Positions 39,867-55,396 of a stretch of DNA of 64,000 nucleotides are shown here, piece after piece. A program made the translations under genes and the position numbers. The notes under the pieces were generated by a model. It made no database searches. It had not been told where the DNA came from and saw only the letters and a program-made list of their open reading frames with translations. How positions within the stretch are numbered: the first letter of the stretch is position 1; every line of letters begins with the position of its first letter. Source of the DNA: an uncultured Acidobacteriota bacterium (GTDB lineage: Bacteria; Acidobacteriota; Terriglobia; Terriglobales; Acidobacteriaceae); assembly GCA_963798315.1 (NCBI GenBank), contig CAWCTA010000025.1, positions 158,007-222,006 of the forward strand, in the 5' to 3' direction.

Positions 39867-41359
39867 AGTACGCCTCCAGCCGCCATTCGTGGCGAGCGCG
39901 ATCGTGCCCCAGCAGGCACGCCACGAAGACACCATCGCCGCGCTCGGCTAAAACATCCCATTCCTCGAGATCCCACTCGCCTTCGCACCACCAGCTGCCA
40001 CTGCTTCTCCACGGACCGTAGGCAGCCGTTATGTCGAAGCGGTTCTTCTCATCGCGAAATGCCGCCGGCCTGGCCGCACGCTGCACAACGCGAATCGGCA
40101 TCGATGGACGCACCCGCCGCAGAGCCATGCGGCGGCCATCCGGCTCCCTCTCCGATGCCCCGGCGCCGATCGCAAATGCCTCCATGCGAAAGCTCCCGCC
40201 GCGATGGCTGTCTTCAAGAACAGGCGAGCCCACGCGGTCATCGCCGACGAGAGCCCGCAACCTCGCCAGGGTTACATCGAGCCGCGACGGTTCTGGCATT
40301 TGCGGGGCAAACAGGCCGAGTTGCACGGTGCCCGATCGCCCCGCCTCAGCCGTCAATTCGAGAGAGACGATGGCGGCCTGCGGCGGGTGCGCGGCTATCT
40401 CCAGTTGCAGAAGCTTGAGGAGAAATTTGCGATCGGTGGAAGGAACAGCAGGCCGAAGTACGCACTGGTGTGTCAGTCCTCTTTCCAGCTGCATCTTCGC
40501 GGTGAGTATCGAAAGCGAGAGTGCCCGATCGCCTGCGCGGGCAACGAGGCAATCGATCATGCGAGCGCCCATGAACAGCAGAGAGTCGATCTGCTCTACA
40601 GGCGTTTCGAATTCACAAAATTCGCGCAGCGCGAATGCAGCCTCGATGGGTTGAAACGTGTGTGAATGCGCGCCCCGGGCCAATGCGCGCCATGCTTGCG
40701 CATCCGAGCCAAGCCGCGTGATGAGTTCGACCTCGGGCAACGCGGCTAATTCGCCCAGGGTACGAATGCCCCACAGCGCAAAAGTGTCAGCGGGTTCCTC
40801 CTCAAGATCGAGTGAGGCAATGGGCTGTTTTGCGAGTGCTGAAGCTTCTTCACCCTCAGCGATCATGGCCACTCCGTGGGTCACGGCAGCTTTCATCCGC
40901 GCGGCATCGTAGTTGGCGCTCACCGCAATCGACACCCGGAAGCCGGCGTCAGCCAATGCAGAGCGCATTCGCCCGGCTAACTGCGCGGGGGGACCAAACA
41001 GGCGCTCCGTGCCGCTGATGTCGAGCACGAATGCGCGATGCGGTTCCACGGCTTGCTTCTTCAATCCGCGGAGAAAACCGCGCCACGCATTCGAGCAGCA
41101 CAGAGCGAGCCGCTGCTTCCGTTTCGAGCGAGCGCGCCAGAAGCCGGACTCCCCCCATGCCTTCCACATCCAGCCGTGCCATGCCGAGCGACGCGCCATT
41201 CTGCAGCGCGGGACGATTCATGGCACATACAAACTCCTGTGGCGGCCGGCCCTCGATGACCGCCACTGGTGCGCTTCGCAAATCAGGGCGCAGCCGCAGC
41301 AAGGCCTGCGCCGGAAACTCCGCCGCATGCACACAGGCGTAAAGAGCATTCACGCTCAT
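39859..41359 (-). pseudogene. imuB: ImuB Y-family polymerase-like protein, frameshifted as sequenced by one extra base near 41037
   Basis: ORFs 40949-41398 (YACVHAAEFPAQ...FSPRIEE) and 39859-41199 (AFVLDISGTERLFG...WDLEEWDV...WRLEAYYD) join as GTA-CAFVLD if base 41037 is removed (1500 nt). ATGA overlap with imuA. Confidence 0.88.
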
Positions 41360-42147
41360 GCGCGCTTCTCCATATCCCACGGGCTGTTGGCGGACCATGT
41401 AGATGCAGGTTGTTTGCGAGGACCTGGCGAAATCGGCGTAAAGCGCTGTCGACCACGCTGCAGGCTGAACGTAAAGCCGCGCAGCACAGTGCCGCCTGCC
41501 GTTTCGGCTTCAAGCGGAGCGCACTCGAGAGCGATCGCTGCGCTCGACTGGGCATAGGCAGCCTGTCCGAGCACCACGAGACTGCAGCGGGTGCGATCAG
41601 AAGCCTGTCGAAAACGGAACCATGTGGCAAGCGGAATTCGATTGCCGTGCTCCAGCGCGGTATCGCCCAGGTCGAGCACAATGGCAGCGAAGCCGGCGGC
41701 CTGGAGCAGTAGATCGGTGGCGCGCAGCGCCTGATCCAGCTTCGTCCATGGTTTCCCCTTTTCCGATCGCGGAGCCCGAGCGGCACGAGGTTGGGGTTGC
41801 GACCGATCCTGGCATCGCACCCAGAGCAGTTGACGGAGGTCGACGCCGTTGGCCGCGGCCGATTCCGGATCGAAAGCATCATTCGTATCTACCCAGGCGC
41901 AGACGCGGGCTTCGGCCGTTCGCCGGGCGAGAAAGGACAGGGCAAGGCTGGTACGTCCCGACGATGCGGGGCCCGTTATCTCGCTGATCGCTCCCACCGG
42001 AATGCCGCCATCCAACTGTTGGTCGGCCTCCTCAATGCCCGTCGGCGCGACCTCGCGGTGAGCGCAGGGCGCAGGCGTCAGCGCAGACGGAAAGCGGCTG
42101 GCGAGGGCGTGTTCGATCTGGAGGCGAAGGGCTGCAGCGGCAGGCAT
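41356..42147 (-). CDS. imuA: ImuA / RecA-like protein of the mutagenesis cassette
   Basis: GGIPVGAISEITGPASSGRTS Walker-A-like motif, WVDTNDAFDP, IVLDLG; first gene of the cassette. Confidence 0.85.
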   Translation of the reverse strand: MPAAAALRLQIEHALASRFPSALTPAPCAHREVAPTGIEEADQQLDGGIPVGAISEITGPASSGRTSLALSFLARRTAEARVCAWVDTNDAFDPESAAANGVDLRQLLWVRCQDRSQPQPRAARAPRSEKGKPWTKLDQALRATDLLLQAAGFAAIVLDLGDTALEHGNRIPLATWFRFRQASDRTRCSLVVLGQAAYAQSSAAIALECAPLEAETAGGTVLRGFTFSLQRGRQRFTPISPGPRKQPASTWSANSPWDMEKRA

Positions 42148-42160
42148 GGCGAGGCGACCT

Positions 42161-42190
42161 GTTTTCGCCTTTTATTCGCTTAGATTCGCT
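42161..42190. promoter_or_regulatory. Candidate LexA operator: triple TTCGC direct repeat upstream of imuA
   Basis: GTTTTCGCCTTTTATTCGCTTAGATTCGCT; TTTC-N7-ATTC resembles the GTTC-N7-GTTC direct-repeat SOS box, 14-43 nt before the imuA ATG. Confidence 0.5.
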
Positions 42191-42300
42191 CCATGCTCGA
42201 TCGGTTGTCAAAGCCACATCGGTGGATTTTTCTGTAAGCCATTGATTCAATAGCCGAATATAAATGCCGTCGTTACGATTTTCACAAGAAGAATGACCCC

Positions 42301-44244
42301 CTACTTGTGGACTGACTCGCGCTGATTTGCGACGAAATCGGCAATCGCCACGACCTGTTCGTCCGGCAAGTACTCGTGGCCCACCATATCAGTTCCTTTC
42401 AAACCGAATTTGGTGATGCGGGCAATGTCCTTGCGGAGTTCCGCCAGGATCTCACCCCCCGCGACGTGCTGCATTGGACCGCGCACCAGATCCGGCGGAA
42501 CGCTGTGAAAACTCGCCCGCCACTTTCCACGGGCAGCACCGTCGGACGCGTGACAGGTGGCGCAGTGTTCGGCGAAAAGCATGTGGCCGTCGATTGACCG
42601 GGCCTGCGTAATCGCGCGATCCGAAGGCTGCCAGTCGGCGACTGTACGCCAGTGCCCGGCGGAGTTGAGGCTCGTGAGGTAGGCAATCAGGTCGTCCCCG
42701 CGCCCGTCGCGAAACAGGTAATCGTAGCGAGGCATGATGGAGTCGTAGCTTACGTCGCGCGGATTCATGAAATGGATGCGCAGCCATAACGGCGAGCGGC
42801 GAGCGCCCACCTGGCTCAGATCCGGGCCCTGGCGCCGGTTGCCGATCAATGGCGGCTGTTCGCGGCGAATCTCCTCGAGGCCGGTGACTGGGCCCCACAT
42901 CGGCACGTCGGCCGTATTCGGCCGTACGTATTGCGAATGGCAGTTGATGCAGCCTTCGGCGATGTACACCTGCCTGCCGCGTTCGACCGGGGTCAGCACC
43001 ATGGAATTGGCAAAGGAAAGGCCGTCCGGACGAACGATAAGAGTGAGAGCAAAAGCGATTCCCATCACCATCGCGATGACCAGCGCCTGGATCCGGGTCG
43101 ATTTGTCGAGTCGCCCGGCAGTGATCGCGTTCCAAAGCCAGGGCACAGCGAAGAGCGCCGCGGCTGCAATAACAAAAGCGATGGGAACATGATGCAGGTT
43201 GCGGCCCATGCCGATGCCGAGTGCGGAGCCGGTCCAGCCGGCCAGCGCATAGAGGTATCCTGCCGCCCGGGCGCGTTCACCGTGCGATGCGGCAGGCATG
43301 AGGAAAGATGGATAAGCCACAAGCGCAACCGAATAGAGCGACACTCCGATGGGATACAGAACGGCTGCAACGGGGACCCGCACAGGGTCGAGAAGCAACA
43401 GGCATGCTGCGCCGAGGGCCCCAATTGCCAGCGCAAGCGTCAGGGACACACCACGGCGCGCGAGCAGCCATGCGCTTACGAGCGCAGCGGCGAGATGCAG
43501 CGTGCCGGCACGCCATAAATGGAGATCGCCCTGCCATGTTCCGGCTTTGAGCCAGGGAGAATTCTGGATGATGTAGAAGGCGGCAGAATCCAGCCATACC
43601 AGCACAGTGAACCACACGAGTACCAGCGCGAACCTTACCGACTTGCGCTGCATTGGCTCGGCTGGCAGCGGCTGCAGGGAGTCAACGCGGCTGCGATTGG
43701 CAACGATCAGGGCGACAAGGCAGCACGCGGCGGACGTCAATGCAATCCGTTGTGGGCTCGCCGTAAACAGCGGCGGAAAATTGCAGAGGAAATATCCAAT
43801 GCCGGTGCCGATGCCGACTTTGAGAAGCGGCCGATCGATCCCGATCCACAGGGGAAGATTGGCAACCAGGGTTACTGTGAGCAGGCCCAGAGAAACACCG
43901 ATCGTCAAAGCGACCGTGGCGGCGGTGAAGACATTGAGCGGCAACAGCGACCACACTGTGGTGAGTGCGCAACCGATAAGGCCGGTCTGGAGCCGGCAGC
44001 TCGGACAGGTCCACAGGCGACAGCGCGGAGCGAACAGGCTCATGCCGACTCCGCCGATGGCCATCGCGCCCATGATCAGGGGAAGCGAATTCTCCGTGAT
44101 GCCAAGCTCGGCCAGGCGCTTGAGAAATCCGAATTGCGCAAAGATGAGGAAGTAAACATAGGTACTGGCGACGAGGAGAACGCCTTGCCAGCCTTCGAAG
44201 ATGGGTGGAGCATCAGCACCCCGCGGGCGCGATTCAGCCTGCAC
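42301..44244 (-). CDS. Fusion protein: MFS-like multi-TM domain + cbb3 subunit II (CcoO/FixO)-like cytochrome c + second cytochrome c domain
   Basis: About 12 TM helices, then GRQVYIAEGCINCHSQYVRP...GNRRQGPDL...HFMNPR...SIMPRY, then CATCH...MVGH. GTG 44244 overlaps the upstream stop (ORF track start 44418). Confidence 0.8.
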   Translation of the reverse strand: MQAESRPRGADAPPIFEGWQGVLLVASTYVYFLIFAQFGFLKRLAELGITENSLPLIMGAMAIGGVGMSLFAPRCRLWTCPSCRLQTGLIGCALTTVWSLLPLNVFTAATVALTIGVSLGLLTVTLVANLPLWIGIDRPLLKVGIGTGIGYFLCNFPPLFTASPQRIALTSAACCLVALIVANRSRVDSLQPLPAEPMQRKSVRFALVLVWFTVLVWLDSAAFYIIQNSPWLKAGTWQGDLHLWRAGTLHLAAALVSAWLLARRGVSLTLALAIGALGAACLLLLDPVRVPVAAVLYPIGVSLYSVALVAYPSFLMPAASHGERARAAGYLYALAGWTGSALGIGMGRNLHHVPIAFVIAAAALFAVPWLWNAITAGRLDKSTRIQALVIAMVMGIAFALTLIVRPDGLSFANSMVLTPVERGRQVYIAEGCINCHSQYVRPNTADVPMWGPVTGLEEIRREQPPLIGNRRQGPDLSQVGARRSPLWLRIHFMNPRDVSYDSIMPRYDYLFRDGRGDDLIAYLTSLNSAGHWRTVADWQPSDRAITQARSIDGHMLFAEHCATCHASDGAARGKWRASFHSVPPDLVRGPMQHVAGGEILAELRKDIARITKFGLKGTDMVGHEYLPDEQVVAIADFVANQRESVHK

Positions 44245-44653
44245 GTTCGAGCCATCCTTTGCGCAGGCCGATCCACTGAATCGCCGCGAATGAGCCATCG
44301 GAAAACGCAACGCTGATCCAACGGATCTCCAGGGCTGACGATGCGATTTGACCCACAACGAAAACCGCCACGAGGGTGCGCACCAGCGCGGTGATCTTCC
44401 ATTGTGTCGACCATCCAATGTGGGCGTGCGTCGTCAGAGGCCAGCGCGCCACGGCCCAGAAATAGGTAAGGCCTACGGACAAGACGAATACGCCGATGTA
44501 GCGAACGAACACTAGCGGCTGGGGGATGATGGTGAGGCCCATGAACCGCAGCGTCCATGCGGGTGCGCCGATCAGCAGCAGGCCGGTGCCGGTGTCGCAC
44601 AGTCCGGCGATGTATTGGTAGAGGATGAGCCAGCGGCGAGGCGGGGCGTTCAT
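44234..44653 (-). CDS. Small four-TM membrane protein
   Basis: 139 aa with four hydrophobic segments; ATG overlaps the upstream stop (ATGA) and its own stop overlaps the next start. Confidence 0.75.
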   Translation of the reverse strand: MNAPPRRWLILYQYIAGLCDTGTGLLLIGAPAWTLRFMGLTIIPQPLVFVRYIGVFVLSVGLTYFWAVARWPLTTHAHIGWSTQWKITALVRTLVAVFVVGQIASSALEIRWISVAFSDGSFAAIQWIGLRKGWLERAG

Positions 44654-46125
44654 AGTCGCTCGCCCTCCGGATGACCAAGGCTGACGCGATCAAGGTCTGA
44701 GGTTTCCCACCCTTTCCGCAGAAACAAGCGGAAAGGATGGGGCACGGCGGTCTGTGGCGCTGACAGCATGCGGCGGGTGAGACGAATGAACCAATGCGCC
44801 GATGCCGCGGTCATGGCAATTCCCAGCACCAGGCGCACCACGTAAATAAGATTGCGAGCGGGGCCGGGAACAATCGTAAAGGCGGGATCGCCTCCCTCCT
44901 TCCAGCCAGTAAAGAAAAACAGGATCACATACGCCAGTGTCGCGCCGTGCCAGGCAAAAAATGGCCAGCGAGCGCTAAAGATAGCTCCGTCTTCGTCAAG
45001 CAGGACAGACAGGATGAGAATCAGCAGGCTGCTGACGAAACCTGCCATCGCCAGGATGGAATGGCCCACGAGGCCGTCGGTGAATTTGAGGCGGTCGAGG
45101 ATACCGGGGAGAAAAAACGCCCAGCCCGTAGGAACGAGCAGGGCCCAATACCCAAGCACGGCCATCCGCCACAAGCGTGTTCTTGCGGGCCACGCAAAGG
45201 CGGTGAAATACGCAGGCACAAGCGGCACCCAGATCAGCAGGCTGCCCAGGCTGATGAACTGCACGGGAAGGTGGTGGCTCACGTCTGCGCGGCCCAGGGC
45301 GAGGCAAAGCAGGGCTTCGACGGCTAAGACGACCCAGGCGGCGACGATCCAGTGACGGCCGGTGGTTTTGCGATGAGTAAGGCCATAGGGCAACAGGAAG
45401 AGGATGAGGACGATAACGAGCGTGGATTCGAGCTGGCTCGCTCCCGTGGGGCCGCCGGTATCGGGATTGATTGCAGGATATGTGGCCGGATCCGATGCAA
45501 GGTAAATGGCCATGGGAACGAGCAAAAGCAGCGCGAGGCCAAGCAGTTTGGCAGCGCGGATGAGGGTCGATCGATTTTCAGGCTCGTGCCAGGCATGCTT
45601 GTACGCGGCGGCGAGCACCACCCACAGGAAAAGGATCGCCAGCGGAAAAAGAACGCGGGCGTAGCCGGTCCAGTCGAGGAAGAGCTTGCCGCTGGAGTTG
45701 CCGTTGAGCCAGGAGACTGCGCCGATGGTAAGAGCCAGCGACCATAGAATGAGAGCCGCCGGCGACCAGGCGGCGATGGCCCCGCGGTCAGCACGATAGA
45801 TGCGGATCGCCCACGCCACGAGCGGCAGCGCCATCCATCCGTAGAGTTGGAAATTGAGATGCACTGGAGTCCAGCGGCCGTAGCTCCACTCGCCAAGCCA
45901 GCGACCCGCGGCCGGATAGAGCAACAGGATGGCGAGCCAGACTCCGGTCAGGTTCGCGACCACGAGCCACGCCAGGCTGTGCCATGCGGCGACGGCGAGA
46001 ACTGAGTGCGTTTCCGAACGCGACCCGGCGGAAGTCTCGACTGCAACAGGTTGGAACGCGACGTGCAAGGGTAGATATGCGACCGCTGTCAGTCCGGCGC
46101 CGGACTCACTCGCAGATTTTGCCAT
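44650..46125 (-). CDS. Degenerate cbb3-type oxidase subunit I (CcoN/FixN)-like membrane protein
   Basis: YGRWTPVHLN (cf. FGRLRPLHTN), SSGKLFLDW (cf. SSKEYAELEW), SHHL (cf. PHHL), FTDGLVGHSI (cf. YTDWTIGHVH); about 12 TM helices. Confidence 0.75.
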   Translation of the reverse strand: MAKSASESGAGLTAVAYLPLHVAFQPVAVETSAGSRSETHSVLAVAAWHSLAWLVVANLTGVWLAILLLYPAAGRWLGEWSYGRWTPVHLNFQLYGWMALPLVAWAIRIYRADRGAIAAWSPAALILWSLALTIGAVSWLNGNSSGKLFLDWTGYARVLFPLAILFLWVVLAAAYKHAWHEPENRSTLIRAAKLLGLALLLLVPMAIYLASDPATYPAINPDTGGPTGASQLESTLVIVLILFLLPYGLTHRKTTGRHWIVAAWVVLAVEALLCLALGRADVSHHLPVQFISLGSLLIWVPLVPAYFTAFAWPARTRLWRMAVLGYWALLVPTGWAFFLPGILDRLKFTDGLVGHSILAMAGFVSSLLILILSVLLDEDGAIFSARWPFFAWHGATLAYVILFFFTGWKEGGDPAFTIVPGPARNLIYVVRLVLGIAMTAASAHWFIRLTRRMLSAPQTAVPHPFRLFLRKGWETSDLDRVSLGHPEGERL

Positions 46126-46816
46126 CGCGCATCTCCACCAGGCGGTCGCAGCGTTGCGCCAGCCCGCGGTCGTGGGTTGCCATCACCAGGGTGATGCCTT
46201 CGGTGGCGGCCAGTTCCAGCAGCAGGTCGAAAATCTGGCGGCTGGTGCGCTCATCGAGTGAACCGGTGGGCTCGTCGGCCAGCAGGATTCCCGGCTTGTT
46301 CATCAGCGCCCTGCACAACGCGGTGCGCTGACGTTCGCCACCCGACAGCTTTTGGATGCGCTGTTTGAGGCGATGGGTAAGCCCGGTGCGTTCGGCGAGG
46401 ATGTGCAGGCGCGCCAGCGCCTCTTTGCGCGGAGTGCCGGCGGCTACGGTCGGAATGAGGCAGTTTTCTTCAAGCGTCAGGTCGGCGATGAGATTGTGCA
46501 GTTGGAACACGAACCCCACCTCATGGCGGAGGTACTGCGTGCGGCGGCGTTTCTTGAGGTCCGTGCCGTGGATCAACACGCGCCCGCGCGTCGGCTCATC
46601 CAGGCCGCCGACGAGGTGGAGCAAGGTGCTTTTGCCGCAGCCGGAGGGGCCACAGATCGCTACCGTCTGGCGGGAAAACACTTCCAGGTCAACCCCGTTC
46701 AGGACGGGGATGGAACCGTCTTCGTAGCTCTTCCACACATCCTCGGCGCACAGCAGCGCCGGCCCCGATTTCGAGGCGGGTGTGGATTGCCGATCGACGG
46801 CGGTTTGGCTATTCAA
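46106..46816 (-). CDS. ABC transporter ATP-binding protein (LolD/MacB type)
   Basis: GPSGCGKSTLL, GFVFQ, LSGGERQR, LADEPTGSLD, MATHD; probable TTG start 46816 overlaps the permease stop. Confidence 0.93.
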   Translation of the reverse strand: MNSQTAVDRQSTPASKSGPALLCAEDVWKSYEDGSIPVLNGVDLEVFSRQTVAICGPSGCGKSTLLHLVGGLDEPTRGRVLIHGTDLKKRRRTQYLRHEVGFVFQLHNLIADLTLEENCLIPTVAAGTPRKEALARLHILAERTGLTHRLKQRIQKLSGGERQRTALCRALMNKPGILLADEPTGSLDERTSRQIFDLLLELAATEGITLVMATHDRGLAQRCDRLVEMRDGKICE

Positions 46817-47921
46817 AGCGCAGCGCCTCCACCGCGCGAACCCGCATGGCATAGAAGGCGGGATAAAGCGCCCCCGCAGCGCCTGTGAAGCAAGCCAGCA
46901 GCACCACTGCCATCACCACCACTGGCTGGACCTCGGCATCGACGTATCCGTGGAGCGCTGGAATGAGCTTGAGAGCGAGAATGGCGCACGTCCCGATCCC
47001 CAGGCCAAGCACCGCCCCCGCGAAGGAGACAGCGCCCGACTCGCCGAAAATGAGCGTGGCAATTTGAGTGTTGGAGAATCCGTTGACGCGGAGAATCGCG
47101 ATTTCGCGAATACGCGTAAACACCGACATGATCATGGTGTTCGCCACGCCCAGTCCGCCCAGGAGCACGCCACAGGCGCCGACCGCCCAGGCCGTCGCTT
47201 TGAGAATCTTGAACTGCGAGTAAGAACGGTTGAACTCCTCGTCTTCGAGCGCGATCAGGCTGGGAAATTGCTGCTTAACCTGCGCCTTGAACGCGGCCTG
47301 GTCGCTGCGGTTCTTCAGTTTCACAAGCAGAACCGAGGACGTGCCATTCTTGTGAAAGAACGACTGTGCGCTCGGAAGGGGCATGAACACGCCGCCGTCT
47401 TCGAAGCCATTCCTGGTGCGGAGAATGCCCATTACCTGGAAGGTTCCGTGACCGATGGCCACCTGGCTGCCCAAGGAGGCATGCAGGAATTCGGCGGCGC
47501 GCTCGCCGAGAGCAATCGCATCCGGGTTGGCGCCGAAGGTGTCTTTGCTTCCGGAAATCCACGTAGCTTCACGGATGCGCGCGTCGTCGCCGGTTACTCC
47601 AAAGCAGGTGATGATGGGATGGTCCTGGCTGGAGACGATGCCGAAGAGAACCGGGTTGGCCTTCTCGACCAGGCTCCAGCCCTGGATTTGCTTCACCGAA
47701 GCGTCCGGCACGCTGCTGAAGAAGAGGTCGGAGATATTGCGCTCGAAGACGATGAGTTGGCTGTCGGCGGAGAGAAGCCCGGCGAACATGCCGACCGCAC
47801 CCTGCAGGATCGTCACCACGGTCAGCATGGCGGCGACACTGAAGGCGATCCCAGCGATGCTGATGAGGGTGCGAACGCGATGGCGGCCGAGATTGGTGAG
47901 AATCAAGCGGAAAAAAATCAT
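46809..47921 (-). CDS. ABC transporter permease (MacB/FtsX/LolE type)
   Basis: N-terminal TM (RTLISIAGIAFSVAA), large periplasmic domain, NTMIMSVFTRIREIAILRVNG, three C-terminal TMs ending YPA...EALRFE. Confidence 0.92.
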   Translation of the reverse strand: MIFFRLILTNLGRHRVRTLISIAGIAFSVAAMLTVVTILQGAVGMFAGLLSADSQLIVFERNISDLFFSSVPDASVKQIQGWSLVEKANPVLFGIVSSQDHPIITCFGVTGDDARIREATWISGSKDTFGANPDAIALGERAAEFLHASLGSQVAIGHGTFQVMGILRTRNGFEDGGVFMPLPSAQSFFHKNGTSSVLLVKLKNRSDQAAFKAQVKQQFPSLIALEDEEFNRSYSQFKILKATAWAVGACGVLLGGLGVANTMIMSVFTRIREIAILRVNGFSNTQIATLIFGESGAVSFAGAVLGLGIGTCAILALKLIPALHGYVDAEVQPVVVMAVVLLACFTGAAGALYPAFYAMRVRAVEALRFE

Positions 47922-48859
47922 GATGCCCGAGTAAGACTGGCCTCGGAAAGATTCGCGATCTCCTTATTGAATTGGACCCGAACATCGCGGAGGAACGCAA
48001 GTCGCGGACGGCGGTGCACCAGACGCGCAATCACCTGGCTACCCAGGTTCATCAGCCGTTCGATGCGGTCGAAAGACTCGGGTACGCCGATGGTGAGCGC
48101 CAGGTTGGGCCGGTCCAGGCAGGCATCACGGGCAGCGGTTTTGCCGTGGACATGGTCGCCATGCAGCACGTCCTTGAGGTCGTCGAGTGTCTGGTAGCTC
48201 AGGCCCCAGAAGGTAGCCAGGCGATCGAGCAGGTTGGCCTCATAGGGCCGGGCTTGACCAATGATTGCGGGAAGAACCAGCGCCAGGCGGATCAGTGAAA
48301 CCGTTTTGCCCATGGCGATGGACTGGGGTTCACGCAGATGCTCTGAAAGGCATCCGTAATGGAGGTCCTGGCTTTGCCCATTGAGAAGCCCGGCGAGCCC
48401 CAGGTGGCGCTCGAGGTAGCCGAGCCCCGCCGATTGAACCTCCGGTGGCAGTCCTGCTACCGACTTCCAGACCAGCGCATAGGCCCTGTTGATCAGCGCC
48501 AGTGCGGCCAGGATAGCCGCTCCCTCGCCGTACACCTGGTGGGCACAAGGCACGCCGCGGCGCAGCTGGGCGTCGTCCATCGAGGGCAGGTCATCAAAAA
48601 GCAGGGATGCAGTATGAAAGTATTCGATGGCAATGGCCAGGTTTTCAGAACGATCTTCGGATAGCCCGAACAAGCAGGCGATACGATACGCCAGTTCAGC
48701 GCGAACCATGCTGCCGGGGTGCTGCAGCGTGTCCCGCAGGGCTCCACCAAGATGAGGCTCGGTTCCCTGGGGCAACGGCAGTCTTGCCTGAAAGGCGCGC
48801 CGGAGGCGGGACCTCATCAAAGCGTGGTTTGCGGTTGAATCCATTCCTTTCGCTCCCAT
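47918..48859 (-). CDS. Polyprenyl (FPP/GGPP-type) diphosphate synthase
   Basis: FARM HTASLLFDDLPSMDDAQLRRG, GQSQDL, GKT, SARM YQTLDDLKD. Confidence 0.92.
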   Translation of the reverse strand: MGAKGMDSTANHALMRSRLRRAFQARLPLPQGTEPHLGGALRDTLQHPGSMVRAELAYRIACLFGLSEDRSENLAIAIEYFHTASLLFDDLPSMDDAQLRRGVPCAHQVYGEGAAILAALALINRAYALVWKSVAGLPPEVQSAGLGYLERHLGLAGLLNGQSQDLHYGCLSEHLREPQSIAMGKTVSLIRLALVLPAIIGQARPYEANLLDRLATFWGLSYQTLDDLKDVLHGDHVHGKTAARDACLDRPNLALTIGVPESFDRIERLMNLGSQVIARLVHRRPRLAFLRDVRVQFNKEIANLSEASLTRAS

Positions 48860-48956
48860 GGTACCGACAGTGTTCGGTTAGACGACTTTTTTGATGAAAT
48901 GTAGATCACCAAACCAGCGATTTCCGCCGTTCCACTGCGCGAATCGCAATCTGGGA

Positions 48957-48974
48957 GATTGTCCGAGGATTGTC
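48957..48974. promoter_or_regulatory. Direct repeat GATTGTC-N4-GATTGTC (11-bp period), candidate OmpR-family regulator box
   Basis: Located in the divergent region between the prenyl synthase operon and the yceI/two-component genes. Confidence 0.4.
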
Positions 48975-49268
48975 TACTTCCATTAGATCATGGAGTTAGG
49001 AGATAAAATGACGCCGTGATGAAACCTGCCGCGCTGTCCGTCCTATAGGACCGGTAGTGGAGATTCGAGGGTCGGCGGGCAGAGAAAGAGACTCGTAAAC
49101 CTTGAGTCGGATCAGCGGAAATGACGATCTCTTCATTCTCGGCCGAGTGCATTGACGCGCGCCATCCCCAACCGTCAGATTAGTAGGCGAGCCCCAAAAT
49201 TAAATTCTCGCCCGGGCGTTGGATCAAGCCTTGGAGGCGGCGTGAATTTCGAACGTGTCAGGAGACTC

Positions 49269-49880
49269 ATGAGTGGCTTATTTGTAAGTGTGATTTCGAA
49301 ATCCGGACCCTTGAAGCTTGGCCGCTCTTTGCTGGCCGCTGTGGCCGGTTTTGCGTTGACTGTCACAGCTCAGAGCCAACAGCATTATCGTGTCGATCCG
49401 GGGACCAGCGCTGTGCACTTCACGCTCGGAGCATCGGACCACCCCGTGGAGGGAACATTCCATGTCACTTCAGGTGACTTCACCCTCGATCCACAGAGCG
49501 GTGCGATGACAGGAACGGTGTCGGTCGACGCTTCCAGCGGACAAAGCGGGAACGAGGGCCGCGACAAAAAAATGACGAAGGATCAGTTGAAGGTGCAGAC
49601 TTTTCCGACCATCACTTTCGCGCCGGCCAGGTTCTCGGGGCAGTTGAAAGACTCCGGCGATTCGAGCGGACCGGTAGAGGGCGCGTTTACACTGCTGGGA
49701 CAGGCCCATCCGATCACCGTTCCCATGAACGTGCATATGGAGGGCGATCACTTCGCCGCTTCCGGCAGTTTTTCAGTGCCGTTCGTGAGTTGGGGCGTGA
49801 AGGATCCGAGCTTCATGTTCATGAAAGTGGACAAGGAAGTGAAAATCGACCTGAAACTAACCGGCACGGTGACCAAATGA
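49269..49880 (+). CDS. YceI family (polyisoprenoid/lipid-binding) periplasmic protein
   Basis: Signal peptide; YRVDPGTSAVHF, GTFHVTSG, SGNEGRDKKM, FPTITF, GAFTLLG, VPFVSWGVKDP; AGGAG RBS before ATG 49269. Confidence 0.88.
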   Translation: MSGLFVSVISKSGPLKLGRSLLAAVAGFALTVTAQSQQHYRVDPGTSAVHFTLGASDHPVEGTFHVTSGDFTLDPQSGAMTGTVSVDASSGQSGNEGRDKKMTKDQLKVQTFPTITFAPARFSGQLKDSGDSSGPVEGAFTLLGQAHPITVPMNVHMEGDHFAASGSFSVPFVSWGVKDPSFMFMKVDKEVKIDLKLTGTVTK

Positions 49881-49936
49881 CAACCAGCCGGCAAGCTGCG
49901 ACTTCATGCCAATCGGCTTGAAAGAGGATCGAACGT

Positions 49937-50614
49937 ATGCGCCTTTTGGTAATCGAAGACGACGTCGCGAACCAGAACTTCCTTGAACGTTCGTTAACCC
50001 AAAACGGTTTCCAGGTGGATATCGCGCCCAACGGAAAGACGGCGGAGAGGATGGCGCTGGCAGGCAGTCATTCGGCCATCATCCTCGACCTTGGCCTTCC
50101 CGACGATGACGGGCTTTCCTTGATTACCCGGCTGAAACAGCAGGGCATCCGCTCCCCAGTCTTGATCTTGTCTGCGCGCCGCTCGCTCGATGACCGGGTG
50201 CGAGGACTGGAAATCGGCGGGGACGATTACCTGACCAAGCCCTATGCCCTTCCCGAATTGCTCGCCCGTTTGCGCAATCTATTGCGCCGGAATGCTCCCC
50301 CCGCCGACAGCACGACCGTCTTGCGAGTCCTGGATCTCCAGCTTGACCTGTTGCGGCGGGAGGCCATCCGGGGAGACGAGGTTCTTCAACTTACCACCCA
50401 GGAATTCTCTTTACTGGAGTATCTTTGCCGCAACGCGGGTCGTATCGTGAGCCGATCCATGATCCTCGACCAGGTGTGGGGCATGCGTATTGAACCGGAC
50501 ACGAACGTCGTGGATGTGCATATTTATCGTCTTAGGGGTAAAGTTGATAAACCGGGTGGACCCCCCATGATCCGCACCATCCGTGGAGTCGGCTATGTAC
50601 TCCGAGATAAATAG
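49937..50614 (+). CDS. OmpR-family response regulator (CusR/CzcR-like)
   Basis: LVIEDD, ILDLGLP, GGDDYLTKPY, EFSLLEYL, DTNVVDVHIYRLRGKVD, IRTIRGVGY. Confidence 0.93.
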   Translation: MRLLVIEDDVANQNFLERSLTQNGFQVDIAPNGKTAERMALAGSHSAIILDLGLPDDDGLSLITRLKQQGIRSPVLILSARRSLDDRVRGLEIGGDDYLTKPYALPELLARLRNLLRRNAPPADSTTVLRVLDLQLDLLRREAIRGDEVLQLTTQEFSLLEYLCRNAGRIVSRSMILDQVWGMRIEPDTNVVDVHIYRLRGKVDKPGGPPMIRTIRGVGYVLRDK

Positions 50615-52082
50615 CTCCAAAGGACACACCGCGGCCTGGCGCATCTCGTTCTGGAGCACGCTGGCGTTCGCCGTGGGTTCACTGATTCTTTTCCTGTTTC
50701 TGCAGCGTTTCGCATCCCACGAAATTCAGCGCCGGACAGACGCCTGGCTCATGGGCGAGGTAGAGACCCTGGCTGACGTGGCCGAACGAACACCAAAAAA
50801 TGCCCTGTATGACCGGATTGTGGACGAAGTAGCGGAACTGGCTACGAAAGAGGTTCCGCTCGAATTACAGGCGGGAGGCCAACCCGACCAGCAGGCCGTT
50901 TTCTTTATCGAAACAGGAAGCGATAATCGCCTGAAGCTCTGGGGTGGCGGCAAGCAGGACAGCACCCCCTTCCTGACCGCAATTTCGCGAAGTCCGATTA
51001 CCCCTGGCAAGCCCATGGACATTTCGGTCCCGGGCTATTTTCATCCCTTTCGCGTGGTAAGCAGACTAACCCCGTCGGGAGACCGTATCCACCTTGGACT
51101 CTCGAAGGCGCAGGACATCCATGTTCTTCTCCGCATGCGTGTTCGGTTGTTTTCGATTTGCCTGGCCATCGTGGTGCTCGGCTTTGTCATCGTTTTCTTC
51201 GCCACCAAGCGGATGTTGGATCGCGTCCATCGCATTACCAGGACTGCCAATCGCATTGGCCAATACGATCTGCGCAGCCGAGTGCCGGAGGTTCGAGGCA
51301 CGGATGAGATTGCCCAGCTCGCCCGCACGCTCAACAAGATGCTGGATCGAATTGAGAATTCAGTCAATCAGTTGCACACCATCACCAACTCGCTTGCCCA
51401 CGACCTGCGCAGTCCGATGATGGCCATCCGCGGCAAGCTCGAACTGGCCCTGCTGGCCGAACATGAGAGCGCCGGAAGCGATCCCATTGCCTCGGCTCTC
51501 GAGGAACTGGATCGTCTCTCTGACTTCCTTACTAAATCGCTGGACGTGGCGGAGGCCAATGCCGATGCTCTGCGCATCCGCAGGGTGCCGGTAAATCTGG
51601 ATGAATCGCTGCGCTCCATGGTGGACCTGTACGAGCCCAGCTTTACCGACAAAGGCCTCAAGGTCCTGATCAGAAGCTCGTCTCCCGTTATTGTGTCAGC
51701 CGATTCCGCGCTCCTGCACCGCTTGCTGGCCAACCTGTTGGACAACGCCCTCAAGCATCTCGCCTCCGGAACGACAATCTACATCCAACTGCAGGCCCTG
51801 GCCCCGTCAGGGCATCTGGAGATCGAAGACGATGGACCGGGCTTTCCTCCCGAAGTGATCGAACATCCGTTCGAGAGATATGTGAAGGGGAAAGAATCGA
51901 CTGGAAGCGGTCTCGGGCTGGCCTTTGTTGAGGCGGTGGTGCGCGCCCATGGCGGACAGATCCGGGCTTCGAACGGCCCGCGTGGAGGAGCGCAGATCGT
52001 GATCGATCTGCCTCTCGCGGGACGCGCTCTTACCGACGAATCGTCATTCGAGCAATCGCACATGCCCGTCTCCCGGAATTGA
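50595..52082 (+). CDS. Sensor histidine kinase (2 TM, HAMP, HisKA, HATPase)
   Basis: DEIAQLARTLNKML, H-box LAHDLRSP, NLLDNALKH, EDDGPG, GSGLGL; overlaps the regulator stop. Confidence 0.92.
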   Translation: MYSEINSSKGHTAAWRISFWSTLAFAVGSLILFLFLQRFASHEIQRRTDAWLMGEVETLADVAERTPKNALYDRIVDEVAELATKEVPLELQAGGQPDQQAVFFIETGSDNRLKLWGGGKQDSTPFLTAISRSPITPGKPMDISVPGYFHPFRVVSRLTPSGDRIHLGLSKAQDIHVLLRMRVRLFSICLAIVVLGFVIVFFATKRMLDRVHRITRTANRIGQYDLRSRVPEVRGTDEIAQLARTLNKMLDRIENSVNQLHTITNSLAHDLRSPMMAIRGKLELALLAEHESAGSDPIASALEELDRLSDFLTKSLDVAEANADALRIRRVPVNLDESLRSMVDLYEPSFTDKGLKVLIRSSSPVIVSADSALLHRLLANLLDNALKHLASGTTIYIQLQALAPSGHLEIEDDGPGFPPEVIEHPFERYVKGKESTGSGLGLAFVEAVVRAHGGQIRASNGPRGGAQIVIDLPLAGRALTDESSFEQSHMPVSRN

Positions 52083-52317
52083 CCCTGGCGGGAAAAATGG
52101 CAATTCCAGTTGATTTTCGCCGCTTCGGTGCATATGATCGACACATGCACGGTTTCATTTGTTGTCGCCTCTGTTGTACGCTTCGCGCGCAGAGGTGACC
52201 TGAGCCTGCACTTTTAGATCGAAATCAAGGTTTCCGAGCGCCCGCGATCAGCCTTAGCTGCCGCGGGTGTTCTGTTTCTGAGCGCAAGTAAGAATCTGAA
52301 TGCGATGAAGAGGAATC

Positions 52318-54015
52318 ATGGCTCAAGCTGTTCCGGAAAAAGAAACCAAAGCGCAACGCGCTGAACGCCTGAAACGCGAGAAGAACCCCTGGGAAGCATT
52401 TGACGAGGTGCGCGCGTTTGCCCGCGAAGGCCGCGCCAGTGTTGTGCCGGAATGGGCTTCGACCTACTTCAAGTGGTGGGGCATCTACACCCAGGGGGAT
52501 GGCGTGGGTGCCACCGGTGGCAAGGGCGGCGAAGGCCTCGCAACGGAATACTTCATGATGCGCATTGGCATTCCTAACGGGATCATCTCGGCCAGCCACT
52601 TGCGCACTATCGGCGGACTCACGCGCAAGTACGCCCGCAACCTGGCCGATATCACCACTCGCCAGAACATCCAGCTTCACTGGCTGACTATCGAGTCGCT
52701 CCCTGAAGTCGTCGATGCTCTGGATGCCATCGGGCTGTCGCCTAAAGGCGCCTGCGGTGATGTCGTGCGCAATGTGACGGGCTGTCCGCTGGCTGGAATT
52801 GCTGCCGATGAAATCATCGACGCTTCGCCGGTCGCGGTCGAGGTTGCGCATCTGCTCACCGCAAACCCTGACTTCTACAACTTGCCCCGTAAATTCAAGA
52901 TCTGTGCCACTGGCTGCCCTTCCTGGTGCGCCTATCCGGAGATCAACGATATCGGATTGACCGCGGTGAAGCACGAGGGCGAGATAGGCTACTCACTGCG
53001 CGTGGGTGGTGGCCTGTCCAACGAACCACATCTCGGCGTTCGCTTGAATGTGTTCCTGCAGCCGGACCAGGCAGTGCGCGCCGTGCGCGGCGTAACGGAG
53101 ATTTTCCGCGATCAGCAGAAGCTGCGCGAAAGCCGGGACCGCGCTCGCTTGAAATACCTGTTCATGAAGGAGGGCTGGACCGCGGAGAGCTTTCTCACAG
53201 AACTGCAGTCGCGGCTCGACTTCACCCTGCGGCCGGCCGTGCCGGAAATTGTGCCAGAGGACGTGTATCGCGATCACGCCGGCATTCATCGCCAGCGCCA
53301 GCAGGGATTGAGCTATGTGGGCGCGTCGGTCCTTCGCGGGCGCATGACCGGCGAACAGCTGGAGGCGTCCGCCGAGCTAGCGGAGCGATTCGGGAGCGGA
53401 AATCTGCGCGCGACCGTTTCGCAGAACCTCCTGTTCATCGATGTGCCGAATGCAAAAACGGGAGAATTGGCCCGCGAGCTGGAACAGATCGGCCTCCACG
53501 TGGAAGGTTCGGCATTCTGGCGCGGCGCCGTGGCGTGTACCGGAACCGAGTTCTGCAAGCTGGCGATTACCGAGACCAAGGGCTTCGCGCGCTGGCTGGT
53601 GGAGGAGATGGAGGAGCGGCTGCCGCAGTTCGACCAGCAACTGCGACTGCACGTGACCGGCTGCCCCAACGGGTGCGGCCAGCACTGGATCGCCGACATC
53701 GGCATCGAAGGCAAGAAGATCAAGCATGAAGGCAAGCTCACCGATGCGTATTATTTCTGCCTCGGTGGCGCGGTGGGCCAACATGCCGCCGTCGCGCGCC
53801 CGGTCGGCTATCGCTGCGCTGCGCCCCTGGTGCCGGATGCGATTGAGCGGTTGCTGCGCCGATACCTTGGCTCGCGGCAGCCGGAAGAGAACCTGCGCGC
53901 CTGGTTTTTGCGCCACACCAACGATGAGCTGCGCGCGCACCTCGCCGGAGAGGTGACCGCGGCAGCGGAGCGCGATCTCCCCACCGGGCCCGTGCCGCAC
54001 GCGGTCGCTGACTGA
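52318..54015 (+). CDS. Ferredoxin-dependent nitrite/sulfite reductase (siroheme, 4Fe-4S)
   Basis: FMMRI, DITTRQNIQ, VRNVTGCP, LPRKFK, CTGTEFCKLAI and VTGCPNGCGQ cluster ligands. Confidence 0.93.
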   Translation: MAQAVPEKETKAQRAERLKREKNPWEAFDEVRAFAREGRASVVPEWASTYFKWWGIYTQGDGVGATGGKGGEGLATEYFMMRIGIPNGIISASHLRTIGGLTRKYARNLADITTRQNIQLHWLTIESLPEVVDALDAIGLSPKGACGDVVRNVTGCPLAGIAADEIIDASPVAVEVAHLLTANPDFYNLPRKFKICATGCPSWCAYPEINDIGLTAVKHEGEIGYSLRVGGGLSNEPHLGVRLNVFLQPDQAVRAVRGVTEIFRDQQKLRESRDRARLKYLFMKEGWTAESFLTELQSRLDFTLRPAVPEIVPEDVYRDHAGIHRQRQQGLSYVGASVLRGRMTGEQLEASAELAERFGSGNLRATVSQNLLFIDVPNAKTGELARELEQIGLHVEGSAFWRGAVACTGTEFCKLAITETKGFARWLVEEMEERLPQFDQQLRLHVTGCPNGCGQHWIADIGIEGKKIKHEGKLTDAYYFCLGGAVGQHAAVARPVGYRCAAPLVPDAIERLLRRYLGSRQPEENLRAWFLRHTNDELRAHLAGEVTAAAERDLPTGPVPHAVAD

Positions 54016-54024
54016 GGATTGTTG

Positions 54025-55396
54025 ATGAGCCTGCTTCCCATTTTTCTCAAACTCGAAGGACGCCAGTGCCTGCTGGTCGGCGCCGGAACTGTGGCCCTGG
54101 ACAAGATCGGCAGTCTCCTCAAGACCGGCCTGCGGCTGCGCGTCATCGCACCGCATGCGACTTCCGAAATCCGACAACTGGCAATGGAAGGCAAGCTGGA
54201 GTGGATCGAGCGCTCATTTGATCCGTCCGACCTCGACGGCAACTATCTCGTCATTGCGGCGACCAATTCGCCCGAAGTGAACGCGGCTGTTTATCAGGCG
54301 GCGGTCGAACGCGGCATCCTGTGCAACAGCGTCGACGACATTCCCAACTGTGACTTCTTCTTCGGTTCCGTGGTGAGTCGCGGCGATTTGCAGATCGCCA
54401 TTTCGACTGCCGGAGAAAGCCCCGCCGTGGCGCAGCGTCTACGCCACGAGATCGATACCCAATTGCCCCAGGACCTTGGTCCCTGGCTCGCCAATCTCGG
54501 CACAGCTCCGGCGCAAGGTTCTGGCCATTCACCCGCGCGGCGAAGAGCGCAAGACGCTGCTGCACCAGTTGGCGCAACGGCAGATCTGCGACTCCGAATC
54601 GTGCCCCTCGCGACGCCTGGCGTTGGCGCCCCTGGGCAAGCCGGAGCCCGACGCGGGCGGAAGGGTGTGGCTGGTGGGCGCCGGACCGGGCGATCCGGAC
54701 CTGCTGACTGTCAAGGCGCTGCGCCTGATTCAATCCGCGCATGTCGTGCTGCACGACGACCTCGTGCCAAACGCCATTCTCGAACTCGCTCACGTCGCGG
54801 AGATCGTGAACGTGGGCAAGCGCTGCGGCGTCAAGAGCATCACCCAGGATGAGATCAACGCGCTGATGATCGAGCATGCCCGCAACGGCCGCCGCGTGAT
54901 CCGTCTGAAAAGCGGCGATCCGCTCATCTTCGGGCGCGCCGCGGAAGAGATGGCGGCCCTCACCGAGGCCGGCGTCGATTTCGAAGTCGTGCCCGGAATT
55001 ACCGCGGCGTTTGCCGCAGCCGCCGCCATCCCCTGCTCCCTCACGGACCGGAACAGCGCCTCGAACGTGACGTTTTCAACCGGCCACCATGCGCAGTCGC
55101 ACAATGAATCGCAGTTGCCGCAACAGGAAGACGCCACCCGCGTGGTCTACATGCCAGGACGCGACCTGCGCCTGCTGGCAGCCGAATGGCTCGCGGATGG
55201 ACTGCCGCCCGATTTTCCCTGCGCTGTCGTCTCCCGCGCCGCACAACCTGGGCAGGCGGTCTTTCACACCACCCTCGGCGAGCTCGGTGAGTGCCCGCCC
55301 GTAGCGGCTCCCAGCCTGCTCCTCGCCGGCTGGGCCGTTCGGGACGCCTCTTCCGCGCGAGCCCGGGCGCAGGAAGCGATGGAAGCCACAGCCTGA
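54025..55396 (+). pseudogene. cysG: Siroheme synthase (dehydrogenase/ferrochelatase + uroporphyrinogen-III methyltransferase), frameshifted as sequenced by one extra base at 54501-54502
   Basis: LPIFLKL, LVGAGTVA, AISTAGESP in one frame; VGAGPGDPDLLT, RLKSGDPLIFGR, VPGITAA in the next. Removing one base gives LANLGQLRRKV and a 1371-nt CDS. Confidence 0.9.

Follow-up and report, generated by a model that had tools for sequence, protein, structure and literature searches.

A conserved gene module of Acidobacteriota links a CcoN homologue with a rewired pocket to a prenyl synthase, a lipid-type extractor and YceI

A 64,000-nucleotide stretch of DNA from an uncultured member of the Acidobacteriaceae (hereafter the window, meaning the whole stretch analysed) carries a module of nine genes, in which a prenyl diphosphate synthase, an ATP-binding cassette (ABC) transporter, a homologue of the cbb3 oxidase subunit CcoN, a four-transmembrane (4-TM) protein and a fused cytochrome are encoded divergently from a YceI-family lipocalin and a two-component system. 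The core of the module is a putative three-protein membrane complex, predicted from sequence, which consists of the CcoN homologue, the 4-TM subunit and a fusion of a major facilitator superfamily (MFS) domain with CcoO and haem c domains. This core is genetically locked to a dedicated prenyl synthase, a lipid-type extractor and YceI, and the gene arrangement is far beyond chance. The complex is probably not a conventional high-affinity O2-reducing proton pump. With confidence that is about evenly balanced, we propose that the module is an envelope system, in which a cytochrome-c-linked haem complex would process an isoprenoid lipid made by the operon, and the lipid would then be extracted and handed to YceI.

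The open reading frame (ORF) coordinates and direct reading of two of the junctions showed that six co-directional genes occupy positions 42301-48859 of the minus strand with overlapping stop and start codons at all junctions. This agrees with the sequence-only reading of the locus, which had reported the six overlapping genes and the divergent yceI, regulator and kinase genes. A 292-bp gap separates the operon from the three divergent genes, and the regulator and kinase genes overlap by 32 nt. The full fusion gene (42301-44244, minus strand) encodes 647 aa, with a FixO/CcoO domain followed by a further cytochrome c domain at the C-terminal end. The features of the module are as follows.

47918-48859, minus strand: short-chain trans-prenyl diphosphate synthase (IspA/CrtE-like), the first gene of the operon (PF00348)
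47918-47921, minus strand: junction of prenyl synthase and permease genes, ATGA overlap
46809-47921, minus strand: MacB/LolCE-type (type VII) ABC permease with periplasmic core domain (PF12704, PF02687)
46809-46816 (TTG start, 8 nt) or 46809-46852 (upstream ATG, 44 nt), minus strand: junction of permease and ATPase genes
46106-46852, minus strand: ABC ATPase, LolD-like (PF00005, TIGR02211)
46106-46125, minus strand: junction of ATPase and CcoN-homologue genes, 20-nt overlap
44650-46125, minus strand: CcoN homologue, subunit I of the haem-copper oxidase (HCO) superfamily, 491 aa, with rewired pocket (profile and hhalign)
44650-44653, minus strand: junction of CcoN-homologue and 4-TM genes, ATGA overlap
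44234-44653, minus strand: family-specific 4-TM subunit, 139 aa (AlphaFold2 (AF2) model and conservation)
44234-44244, minus strand: junction of 4-TM and fusion genes, 11 nt, GTG start; ATG at 44298 also possible
43120-44244, minus strand: N-terminal part of the fusion protein, MFS-fold domain with 12 transmembrane helices (AF2, Foldseek)
42301-43119, minus strand: C-terminal part of the fusion protein, with the anchor helix TM13, a CcoO-type mono-haem c domain and a CcoP-like haem c domain (PF02433, PF00034, PF13442)
48860-49268, no strand: divergent control region with four conserved blocks (MAFFT alignment)
49152-49880, plus strand: YceI-family periplasmic lipocalin, likelier start ATG 49269 (PF04264)
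49937-50614, plus strand: OmpR-family response regulator of the CopR/CusR/HprR subfamily (PF00072, PF00486, TIGR01387)
50583-52082, plus strand: sensor histidine kinase, HAMP-HisKA-HATPase_c, best match the heavy-metal sensor subfamily (TIGR01386)

When the 491-aa protein was used as the query, homologues were retrieved in more than 1370 clusters (90% identity), mostly from Acidobacteriaceae and from peat and soil metagenomes, and many of them bear the JGI product name 'cytochrome c oxidase cbb3-type subunit I'. When one genome per GTDB species was scanned, relatives were found in 299 genomes, and the loci of the best 80, which include Acidipila rosea DSM 103428 and Edaphobacter modestus DSM 18101, were analysed by tblastn with the nine proteins of the window. 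The results showed that the six-gene order is kept in all 80 loci as far as the contigs reach, and that YceI is linked in every one of them within ~4 kb, in one of three placements (upstream and divergent, upstream on the same strand, or immediately after the fusion gene); the two-component system adjoins the module in most of these loci. The sequence-only reading had staked its interpretation on the co-occurrence of the synthase and ABC genes with the CcoN/CcoO-like pair in other genomes, and this co-occurrence was found in all 80 loci. All-against-all clustering of flanking ORFs (within 10 kb, more than 80 loci) revealed no further conserved neighbour family, which implied that the nine genes travel as one (mobile) unit in differing neighbourhoods. 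Carriers are few in the GTDB family to which the window belongs, at 6 of 201 sampled genomes. Four of the 80 loci carry non-Acidobacteriota bin labels (Verrucomicrobia, Rhodanobacteraceae, Acetobacteraceae and Lichenicola) and encode proteins 54-61% identical to those of the window; these contigs were taken as mis-binned Acidobacteriaceae DNA and not as evidence of range.

The linkage extends to distant relatives. An exhaustive HMMER search, run against 1.8 billion cluster representatives, retrieved 355 of them, many at 30-45% identity and none of them a canonical CcoN protein, giving a family size of ~355 clusters at 50% identity. The contexts of eight distant members (GC content 34-75%) contained the same parts at 32-45% identity: the CcoN-like, 4-TM, MFS-like, FixO/cytochrome c and YceI proteins were present, the prenyl synthase usually lay directly upstream, and in some loci the MFS-like protein was encoded by a separate gene of ~380 aa. 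The exporter of distant loci was either MacB with its ABC ATPase or an MMPL/Patched-type RND exporter accompanied by a Lactamase_B_2 (MBL-fold) hydrolase, the latter exporter standing in place of MacB/ABC in loci L082, L084, L086 and L095. The cargo of both exporter classes is hydrophobic and is taken up from the outer leaflet or from the periplasm, and this non-orthologous swap is the strongest single hint that their common task is lipid extraction. One MMPL-type locus has a LytTR-type regulator. When a distant member served as the seed, scanning of metagenomes added 80 more loci (GC content 49-75%). Counted over loci with enough flanking sequence, the MacB permease was present in 49 of 50, the ABC ATPase in 57 of 58, the 4-TM gene, which follows the CcoN homologue, in 62 of 67, the prenyl synthase directly upstream in 35 of 42, the MFS domain in 37 of 47 and CcoO in 38 of 42; YceI, IspA, MacB, MFS and CcoO occurred all together in 16 of the 22 loci with full context. 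A high-GC subgroup (L106, L110, L111, L134, L135, L160 and L161) has MacB/ABC, the CcoN homologue and the 4-TM gene without prenyl synthase and MFS domain, and in some of these loci CcoO comes directly after the 4-TM gene; this subgroup may represent the module in a reduced or an ancestral state.

As a single sequence, the 491-aa CcoN-like protein had no match in Pfam, NCBIfam or PDB, and only profiles reach CcoN. A profile of 41 diverse family members matched the cbb3 CcoN structures 3mk7 and 9g6b over the full length with E ~1e-8 (3mk7_A, E 2.5e-8 by hmmsearch). The hhalign comparison of the family profile with canonical CcoN, represented by six sequences from other Acidobacteriota genomes, covered 395 columns (Prob 98.6%, E 5.8e-16), and the two results together make the CcoN homology secure. 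For the analysis of the catalytic site, 167 family members (81 of the window's clade and 86 distant ones) were aligned, with P. stutzeri CcoN as the reference numbering. His89 (H60, ligand of haem b) and His355 (H345, ligand of haem b3) are invariant in all 167. Position 229, which corresponds to the CuB ligand H207 in TM6, is Ala in the window and in 78 of the 81 clade members; it is His in 15 of the 86 distant members, in the motif GGATGHSLL, which is similar to WYGHNAVG of canonical CcoN. Where canonical proteins have Tyr-x5-His-His, the family has Cys274...Arg279-Ala280-Asp281 in the alignment, and the H257/H258 pair is absent there. A His284-His285 pair lies four residues beyond, and a gap in the alignment at this place makes it a possible, not a certain, counterpart of the former CuB pair. 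The cross-linked Tyr (Y251, TM7) aligns to Cys274 according to hhalign, or to Gly278 if the His-His pair is shifted, and Tyr is found at neither position in any of the 81 clade members. Position 357 (H347, second ligand of haem b) is Ile in the window, Leu, Phe or Ile in all 81 clade members and His in 70 of the 86 distant members, and the equivalent of the Ca-site Glu122 is Leu. The clade has instead a set of near-invariant residues of its own, comprising Glu270 (80/81), Cys274 (81/81), Arg279 (76/81), Asp281 (75/81), His284 (76/81) and His285 (72/81), and no internal stop was found in the CcoN-homologue gene at any locus. These two features suggested that the site has been rewired under purifying selection and is not that of a decaying oxidase. 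The label 'cbb3-like' given by the sequence-only reading is therefore apt, as the protein is a real homologue with a non-canonical catalytic site, and its epithet 'degenerate' is misleading.

Two ideas concerning this protein were rejected. His49, considered as a replacement axial ligand of haem b, corresponds in the alignment to Met20 of CcoN, which is at the cytoplasmic end of TM1 and far from the haem. A 1130-aa 'CcoN-MFS-CcoO superfusion' (L083:9001-12393, 70% GC), considered as a natural model of the complex, is probably an artefact of read-through or of gene calling; low-complexity sequence makes up its middle 150 residues, and the 4-TM gene is intact in another frame (10220-10588). The window's genome also has three canonical COX1 loci. 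At G000:C20:55962-57291 of the same genome, a COX1 gene is apparently split into two adjacent ORFs, possibly through a frameshift, a pseudogene or an assembly error.

The C-terminal part of the fusion protein matched FixO (PF02433, E 8e-28), and its profile matched the CcoO chains in PDB with E ~1e-26, while the last domain matched the C-terminal domain of CcoP with E 5e-5. The CINCH and CATCH motifs and the candidate ligands Met504 and Met620 are invariant in 20 homologues, and this protein is the only strong FixO match of the genome. The CcoO domain is here fused to MFS, and the 4-TM gene separates the fusion gene from that of the CcoN homologue. The N-terminal part, called MFS-like in the sequence-only reading, proved to be a true MFS fold: the AF2 model has pLDDT values mostly of 85-97, and Foldseek against PDB gave a probability of 1.0 and target-normalised TM-scores of 0.6-0.72 to NorA, VMAT2, LacY and others. 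A distant MFS homologue gave a weak PF07690 match (E 3e-4). In members down to 27% identity, the polar residues Q37, N155, D219, S220, Q227, K233, W237, H250, Y297, S302, Y304, S305, W337 and S340 are invariant, and all of these except K233 and W237 are typical of a central binding cavity. Since the MFS termini are cytoplasmic, the thirteenth helix would take the c-haem domains to the periplasm, and the topology fits. A cysteine cluster (CRLWTCPSC) in the first MFS loop (43990-44020; fusion residues ~76-84) was confined to the window and its nearest relatives, L005 among them, and is not a family-wide feature. The 4-TM protein had no Pfam, NCBIfam or PDB profile match and no significant fold match in PDB. 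Its AF2 model (pLDDT 89) consists of four long helices, and its invariant residues are D20, T23, G24, R92, W112, D119 and Q126, with no conserved His or Cys.

The prenyl synthase matched PF00348 (E 4e-31) and the NCBIfam models FPPsyn (E 2e-37) and GGPPSynCrtE (E 7e-33). Both Asp-rich motifs are readable (FDDLPSMDD and LDDLKD), and the small residues before the first one (HTASLLFDD) resemble those of CrtE-type geranylgeranyl diphosphate synthases. The gene is an extra copy in a genome with other polyprenyl synthase loci, as are the YceI and oxidase-like genes. One of those other loci, at G000:C26:363305-364007, consists of a polyprenyl synthase in three pieces, one with an in-frame TGA, for which a frameshift, a pseudogene or an assembly error is possible. 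The permease matched MacB_PCD (PF12704, E 1e-21) and FtsX (PF02687, E 9e-15), and its best NCBIfam match was lolCE, full length with E 9e-20 and below the cut-off. The ATPase matched PF00005 (E 6e-35) and TIGR02211 LolD (E 2e-65, below the cut-off), with readable Walker A, signature and Walker B motifs. A permease with four transmembrane helices, a MacB-type periplasmic core and an FtsX domain next to its cognate ATPase corresponds to the MacB/LolCDE (type VII) layout; neither a MacA-type adaptor nor a TolC-type duct was found in the module, as judged from the flank clustering and the window neighbours. YceI (PF04264, E 2e-24) is a divergent fifth YceI paralogue of the genome, and none of the genome's five PF01292 (cytochrome b561) matches adjoins any of the five YceI genes. 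The yceI start TTG at 49152 lies inside a conserved non-coding block, and the real start is therefore probably ATG 49269, which precedes a signal-peptide-like stretch.

The intergenic region between yceI and the operon was aligned with MAFFT for the window and nine loci of divergent layout, including some whose proteins are only 55-60% identical. Four conserved blocks were revealed at 48972-48992, 49006-49026, 49120-49137 and 49152-49179 (plus-strand coordinates), with the invariant cores TCAT..TCAT, ATGA..GTCAT and TGACG..GTCAA. Two of the blocks are imperfect inverted repeats (AATGAC..TTCATT and TTGACG..CGTCAGA), and one contains TCAT twice (TCAT..TCAT), roughly a helical turn apart. The sequence of the block at 49120-49137, AATGACgatctcTTCATT, forms an imperfect inverted repeat, which may resemble the E. 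coli CusR box. Scans of 42000-52300 for sigma-70 promoters and terminators gave sites no more numerous than in shuffled sequence. The regulator matched TIGR01387 with E 2e-68 and 230 bits (cut-off 279), the CusR-type model with 202 bits and HprR with 185 bits, and the kinase matched TIGR01386 with E 8e-58 and 196 bits (cut-off 292). The scores are below the cut-offs and the H2O2-responsive HprR scores nearly as well, implying that the signal could be a metal, an oxidant or envelope stress. The sequence-only reading had called the two-component system 'metal-type'. The best matches are indeed heavy-metal subfamilies, but the metal is not established, given these scores, the presence of HprRS in the subfamily and the LytTR-type regulator in a distant locus.

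Members of this family have already entered the literature under another name. Trojan et al. (2021; PMC8407424) described 'cbb3 operons' composed of ccoN, 'a cco gene of unknown function' and ccoO, namely Terro_4248-4250 of Terriglobus roseus KBS 63 and ACP_0885/0887/0888 of Acidobacterium capsulatum; this three-gene order is the same as that of the module's CcoN homologue, 4-TM and CcoO genes. The published quantitative PCR (qPCR) primers map inside CcoN-like genes of the family. The T. roseus primer pair fits L069 with 1 and 4 mismatches and a spacing that gives the published 283-bp amplicon, and the A. capsulatum reverse primer encodes MAMAGF, the TM10 motif of the family without the second histidine. 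From this primer mapping we infer that both published 'cbb3 oxidases' are family members. The T. roseus genes were expressed at 0-12 transcripts per million (TPM), and those of A. capsulatum at 11-23 TPM at 10 uM O2 and ~1 TPM at 0.1 uM O2 and below, with a log2 fold change of -2.2 to -3.6 at the lowered O2 concentrations (0.1 and 0.001 uM); the authors had no explanation for this expression and raised loss of enzyme function as a question (PMC8407424). That the protein is not a canonical oxidase by sequence offers an explanation for the absent low-O2 expression. The same genes had been used to propose the strains as microaerobes (Eichorst et al., 2018; PMC5900883), and both studies treated them as type C HCOs. 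Murali et al. (2024; PMC11214002), who surveyed new families of HCOs, include none like the module's CcoN homologue, and they state that no HCO before gNOR was known to have an active-site histidine replaced. No paper describing the module was found when the literature was searched for the gene combination and the locus tags. The novelty claimed for the arrangement by the sequence-only reading thus stands for the module, which is undescribed in the literature searched, and not for its genes, which are known there as cbb3 oxidases, probably a wrong function.

In the route that we propose, the synthase would make a C15-C20 prenyl lipid at the cytoplasmic face, and the MFS domain would bring, flip or present this lipid at the redox complex, or hold it there. 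The periplasmic c-haems would exchange electrons with the pool of respiratory cytochrome c and supply the buried haem, at which the lipid might undergo redox chemistry that depends on O2 or peroxide. The ABC or MMPL transporter would then pull the product from the outer leaflet and pass it to YceI, as LolCDE does to LolA, and the adjoining CopR/HprR-type two-component system would switch the divergent promoters. Oxidative tailoring of a lipid made for export is favoured, as it is the most economical explanation of the synthase-exporter-carrier set. Reduction of an isoprenoid or lipid (hydro)peroxide or radical is our second choice, on account of the BcnA-LcoA precedent and the Arg/His/Asp pocket. 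A stronger form of the proposal, that the HCO scaffold itself has turned into a membrane enzyme with an organic lipid substrate, oxygenating or reducing the operon-made isoprenoid, is put forward tentatively and seems to us rather doubtful. Here haem b3 with its Glu/Cys/Arg/Asp/His/His pocket would receive electrons from the c-type haems and be docked to the fused lipid-presenting MFS domain and the 4-TM subunit, and the product would enter a Lol-like extraction route to the periplasmic lipocalin. To our knowledge, the HCO scaffold has so far been known solely to reduce O2, NO and perhaps N2O.

Several points weigh against an isoprenoid-processing module. That the complex acts on an isoprenoid lipid is inferred from gene linkage, and the MacB-type version of the module has no obvious enzyme for removing or transferring the diphosphate. 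The prenyl synthase is missing in about one-sixth and the MFS domain in about one-fifth of distant members, so that the isoprenoid link is not universal. Glu270, Cys274, Arg279, Asp281, His284 and His285 are placed on the distal side of haem b3 by homology alone, and His284/His285 with Glu270, Asp281 and Cys274 could bind a non-haem metal. The 15 distant members with the TM6 His (L097, L099, L100, L105, L107-L109, L112, L114, L117-L120, L158 and L088) also have Tyr or Trp at 274 and His at 279 in the same operon context, and the context is therefore independent of the loss of the metal site. These members may have kept the metal site and so hint at the role of the ancestral enzyme, and a small-molecule substrate (O2, NO or H2O2) is possible in view of them. 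Moreover, the window's clade lacks the second axial ligand of the low-spin haem, which makes the path from haem c to the active-site haem uncertain.

Among the alternatives, an ordinary cbb3-type high-affinity cytochrome c oxidase with unrelated neighbours would account for the true CcoN and CcoO homology, for the JGI naming and for the type C HCO assignment in both previous studies (PMC5900883; PMC8407424). We consider it very improbable, as the clade has replaced the TM6 His by Ala, lacks the cross-linked Tyr, reads Arg-Ala at the His-His pair and has lost the haem b ligand throughout, the Ca-site Glu is Leu, and ccoQ/ccoP are missing from the module. Its neighbours, conserved across 32-86% identity, are hence not unrelated, and its expression is minimal and drops with O2, the opposite of what is expected of a high-affinity oxidase (PMC8407424). 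A new HCO reductase that detoxifies a small molecule (NO, H2O2 or O2) at a metal site built from His284/285, Glu270, Asp281 and Cys274, with the prenyl synthase, transporter and YceI supplying or installing a lipid cofactor or structural lipid, is a serious rival, although we rate it as unlikely. The active sites of HCOs are variable and NO can be reduced with several ligand sets, Asp replacing one His in gNOR (PMC11214002); expression that tracks O2 would suit oxidant detoxification (PMC8407424). The residue set of the clade is nearly invariant, its His284/285, Glu270, Asp281 and Cys274 could bind iron, some distant members keep His229, Tyr/Trp274 and His279, and the c-haem motifs for electron input are intact. 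On the other side, no nir, nor or nos genes are linked (window and flank clustering), the low-spin haem ligand is lost in the clade, and the MFS fusion and the near-obligate link with an extractor and a lipocalin are hard to explain by cofactor supply alone. We also know of no HCO that needs a dedicated prenyl synthase.

The residues at the haem allow a different reading, in which YceI would capture damaged or antioxidant isoprenoids and the haem complex would reduce them with cytochrome c electrons, detoxifying lipid peroxyl radicals or hydroperoxides in the manner of BcnA-LcoA. Arg together with His or Asp forms the distal pair of haem peroxidases, and the window's clade has, as judged by homology, such a peroxidase-like pocket, with Arg279 at the CuB-His position near Asp281 and His284/285. 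The regulator subfamily holds the H2O2 sensor HprR, expression is higher at higher O2 (PMC8407424), and YceI with a membrane b-type cytochrome protects Burkholderia from lipid peroxidation (PMC9113575). A synthase and exporter of its own are not obviously needed for such a system, however, distant members have His and not Arg at 279, and no cytochrome b561 or PsrA-like gene belongs to the module; the reading seems unlikely to us. Copper or metal homeostasis, with the MFS domain moving the metal, the CopRS-like system sensing it and the haem proteins changing its redox state, is very improbable in our view. CcoA is an MFS copper importer that serves cbb3 assembly, the two-component system matches heavy-metal subfamilies best, Asp219 and His250 are invariant in the MFS cavity, and one control block may resemble a CusR box. 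The two-component scores are nevertheless below the family cut-offs, distant members have LytTR-type regulators, and no metallochaperone or P-type ATPase is linked according to the flank clustering. The MFS domain was tried as a CcoA-type copper importer and this was unsupported, the Met/His motifs of CcoA being absent, and metal homeostasis leaves the prenyl synthase, YceI and the swap of lipid exporters unexplained.

The immediate flanks of the module in the window are unrelated to it. Directly downstream of the operon lies a mutagenesis cassette (36537-42147, minus strand), which occupies the same place behind the module in its closest relatives (L001, L002, L004 and L011), though not in more distant loci:

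41356-42147, minus strand: imuA-like gene (RecA/KaiC-fold)
39859-41199, minus strand: imuB-like gene, no Pfam match
36537-39935, minus strand: dnaE2

On the other side (52318-55396, plus strand), a sulfite/nitrite reductase haemoprotein gene is followed by sirohaem synthesis genes (a NAD_binding_7/Sirohm_synth protein and a TP_methylase), a flank common to the closest relatives only. A protein of ~150 aa with a weak DUF6640 match (E 3e-4) is encoded near the module at variable positions in 22 Acidobacteriaceae loci (e.g., L006:15653-16096). In the low-GC distant loci L082:4678-5319 and L084:6974-8882, the module stands beside genes reminiscent of quinone biosynthesis, one locus having a UbiE-type methyltransferase and the other a PNP_UDP_1-like protein and an SPL-type radical SAM protein; each case is a single locus, and the proximity may be due to chance.

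These results bear on how the family is annotated. Annotation pipelines label it 'cbb3-type cytochrome c oxidase', and this label underlay the description of abundant soil Acidobacteria as microaerobes (PMC5900883). A widespread HCO clade without the canonical copper/tyrosine site and with a conserved alternative pocket extends the known plasticity of the HCO scaffold, which ranks among the most thoroughly studied in bioenergetics. The linkage of synthase, MFS-cytochrome, Lol-like or MMPL extractor and YceI points to an undescribed route of an isoprenoid lipid across the periplasm, and the long-enigmatic YceI family gains a testable set of partners. If the proposal is true, an unrecognised envelope lipid pathway exists in Acidobacteriota and other soil and freshwater bacteria. 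Cultured and sequenced carriers are available (A. capsulatum, T. roseus, Acidipila rosea and Edaphobacter modestus), which makes the hypothesis directly testable.

Compared with known systems, the module is closest in its subunit I to the cbb3 core CcoN/CcoO(/CcoP) of the C-family HCOs (PDB 3MK7, 9G6B and 8SMR), with homology over ~395 columns. Both have the TM2 His for haem b, the TM10 His for haem b3, a CcoO mono-haem c domain on a single transmembrane anchor and a further CcoP-like c-type domain. Unlike cbb3, the module lacks the TM6 CuB His, the cross-linked Tyr and the canonical His-His pair and has Arg279, Asp281 and His284/285 instead, and the window's clade also lacks the second haem b ligand and the Ca-site Glu. 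Its CcoO is fused to a 12-TM MFS domain and accompanied by an obligatory novel 4-TM subunit. No ccoQ/ccoP or ccoGHIS genes lie within the module; a genome search for ccoH (FixH) gave one weak match far from the window, ccoG, ccoI and ccoS being unsearched genome-wide. The module genes are located in a prenyl synthase/extractor/YceI operon, and the expression of relatives is not induced by low O2.

The gNOR, sNOR, eNOR and nNOR families, which have been proposed to be NO reductases (PMC11214002), resemble the module's HCO in the absence of the active-site tyrosine and in altered metal ligands. They are derived from the B family, have a cupredoxin-type subunit II and occur in denitrification contexts, and they keep at least two canonical His and an acidic residue, whereas the module's CcoN/CcoO-related family has lost more ligands. 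On the transport side, the module shares with LolCDE-LolA a permease with a MacB-type core, a separate LolD-like ATPase, the absence of MacA/TolC and an encoded soluble periplasmic beta-barrel carrier. It differs in having a single permease gene, presumably forming a homodimer, in scores far below the LolC/E/D equivalog cut-offs, and in a carrier that is YceI, with an isoprenoid lipid rather than a lipoprotein as the presumed cargo. BcnA (YceI-family) and LcoA (cytochrome b561) of Burkholderia, which act in lipid peroxyl-radical detoxification (Naguib et al., 2022; PMC9113575), likewise couple a periplasmic or secreted YceI-family lipocalin genetically to an integral-membrane haem protein, and envelope lipid redox has been proposed for them. 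In the module no PsrA-type aldehyde reductase is linked and the haem partner is an HCO-derived three-protein set with c-type haems, not a four-helix cytochrome b561, to which a prenyl synthase, an ABC/MMPL extractor and a two-component system are added.

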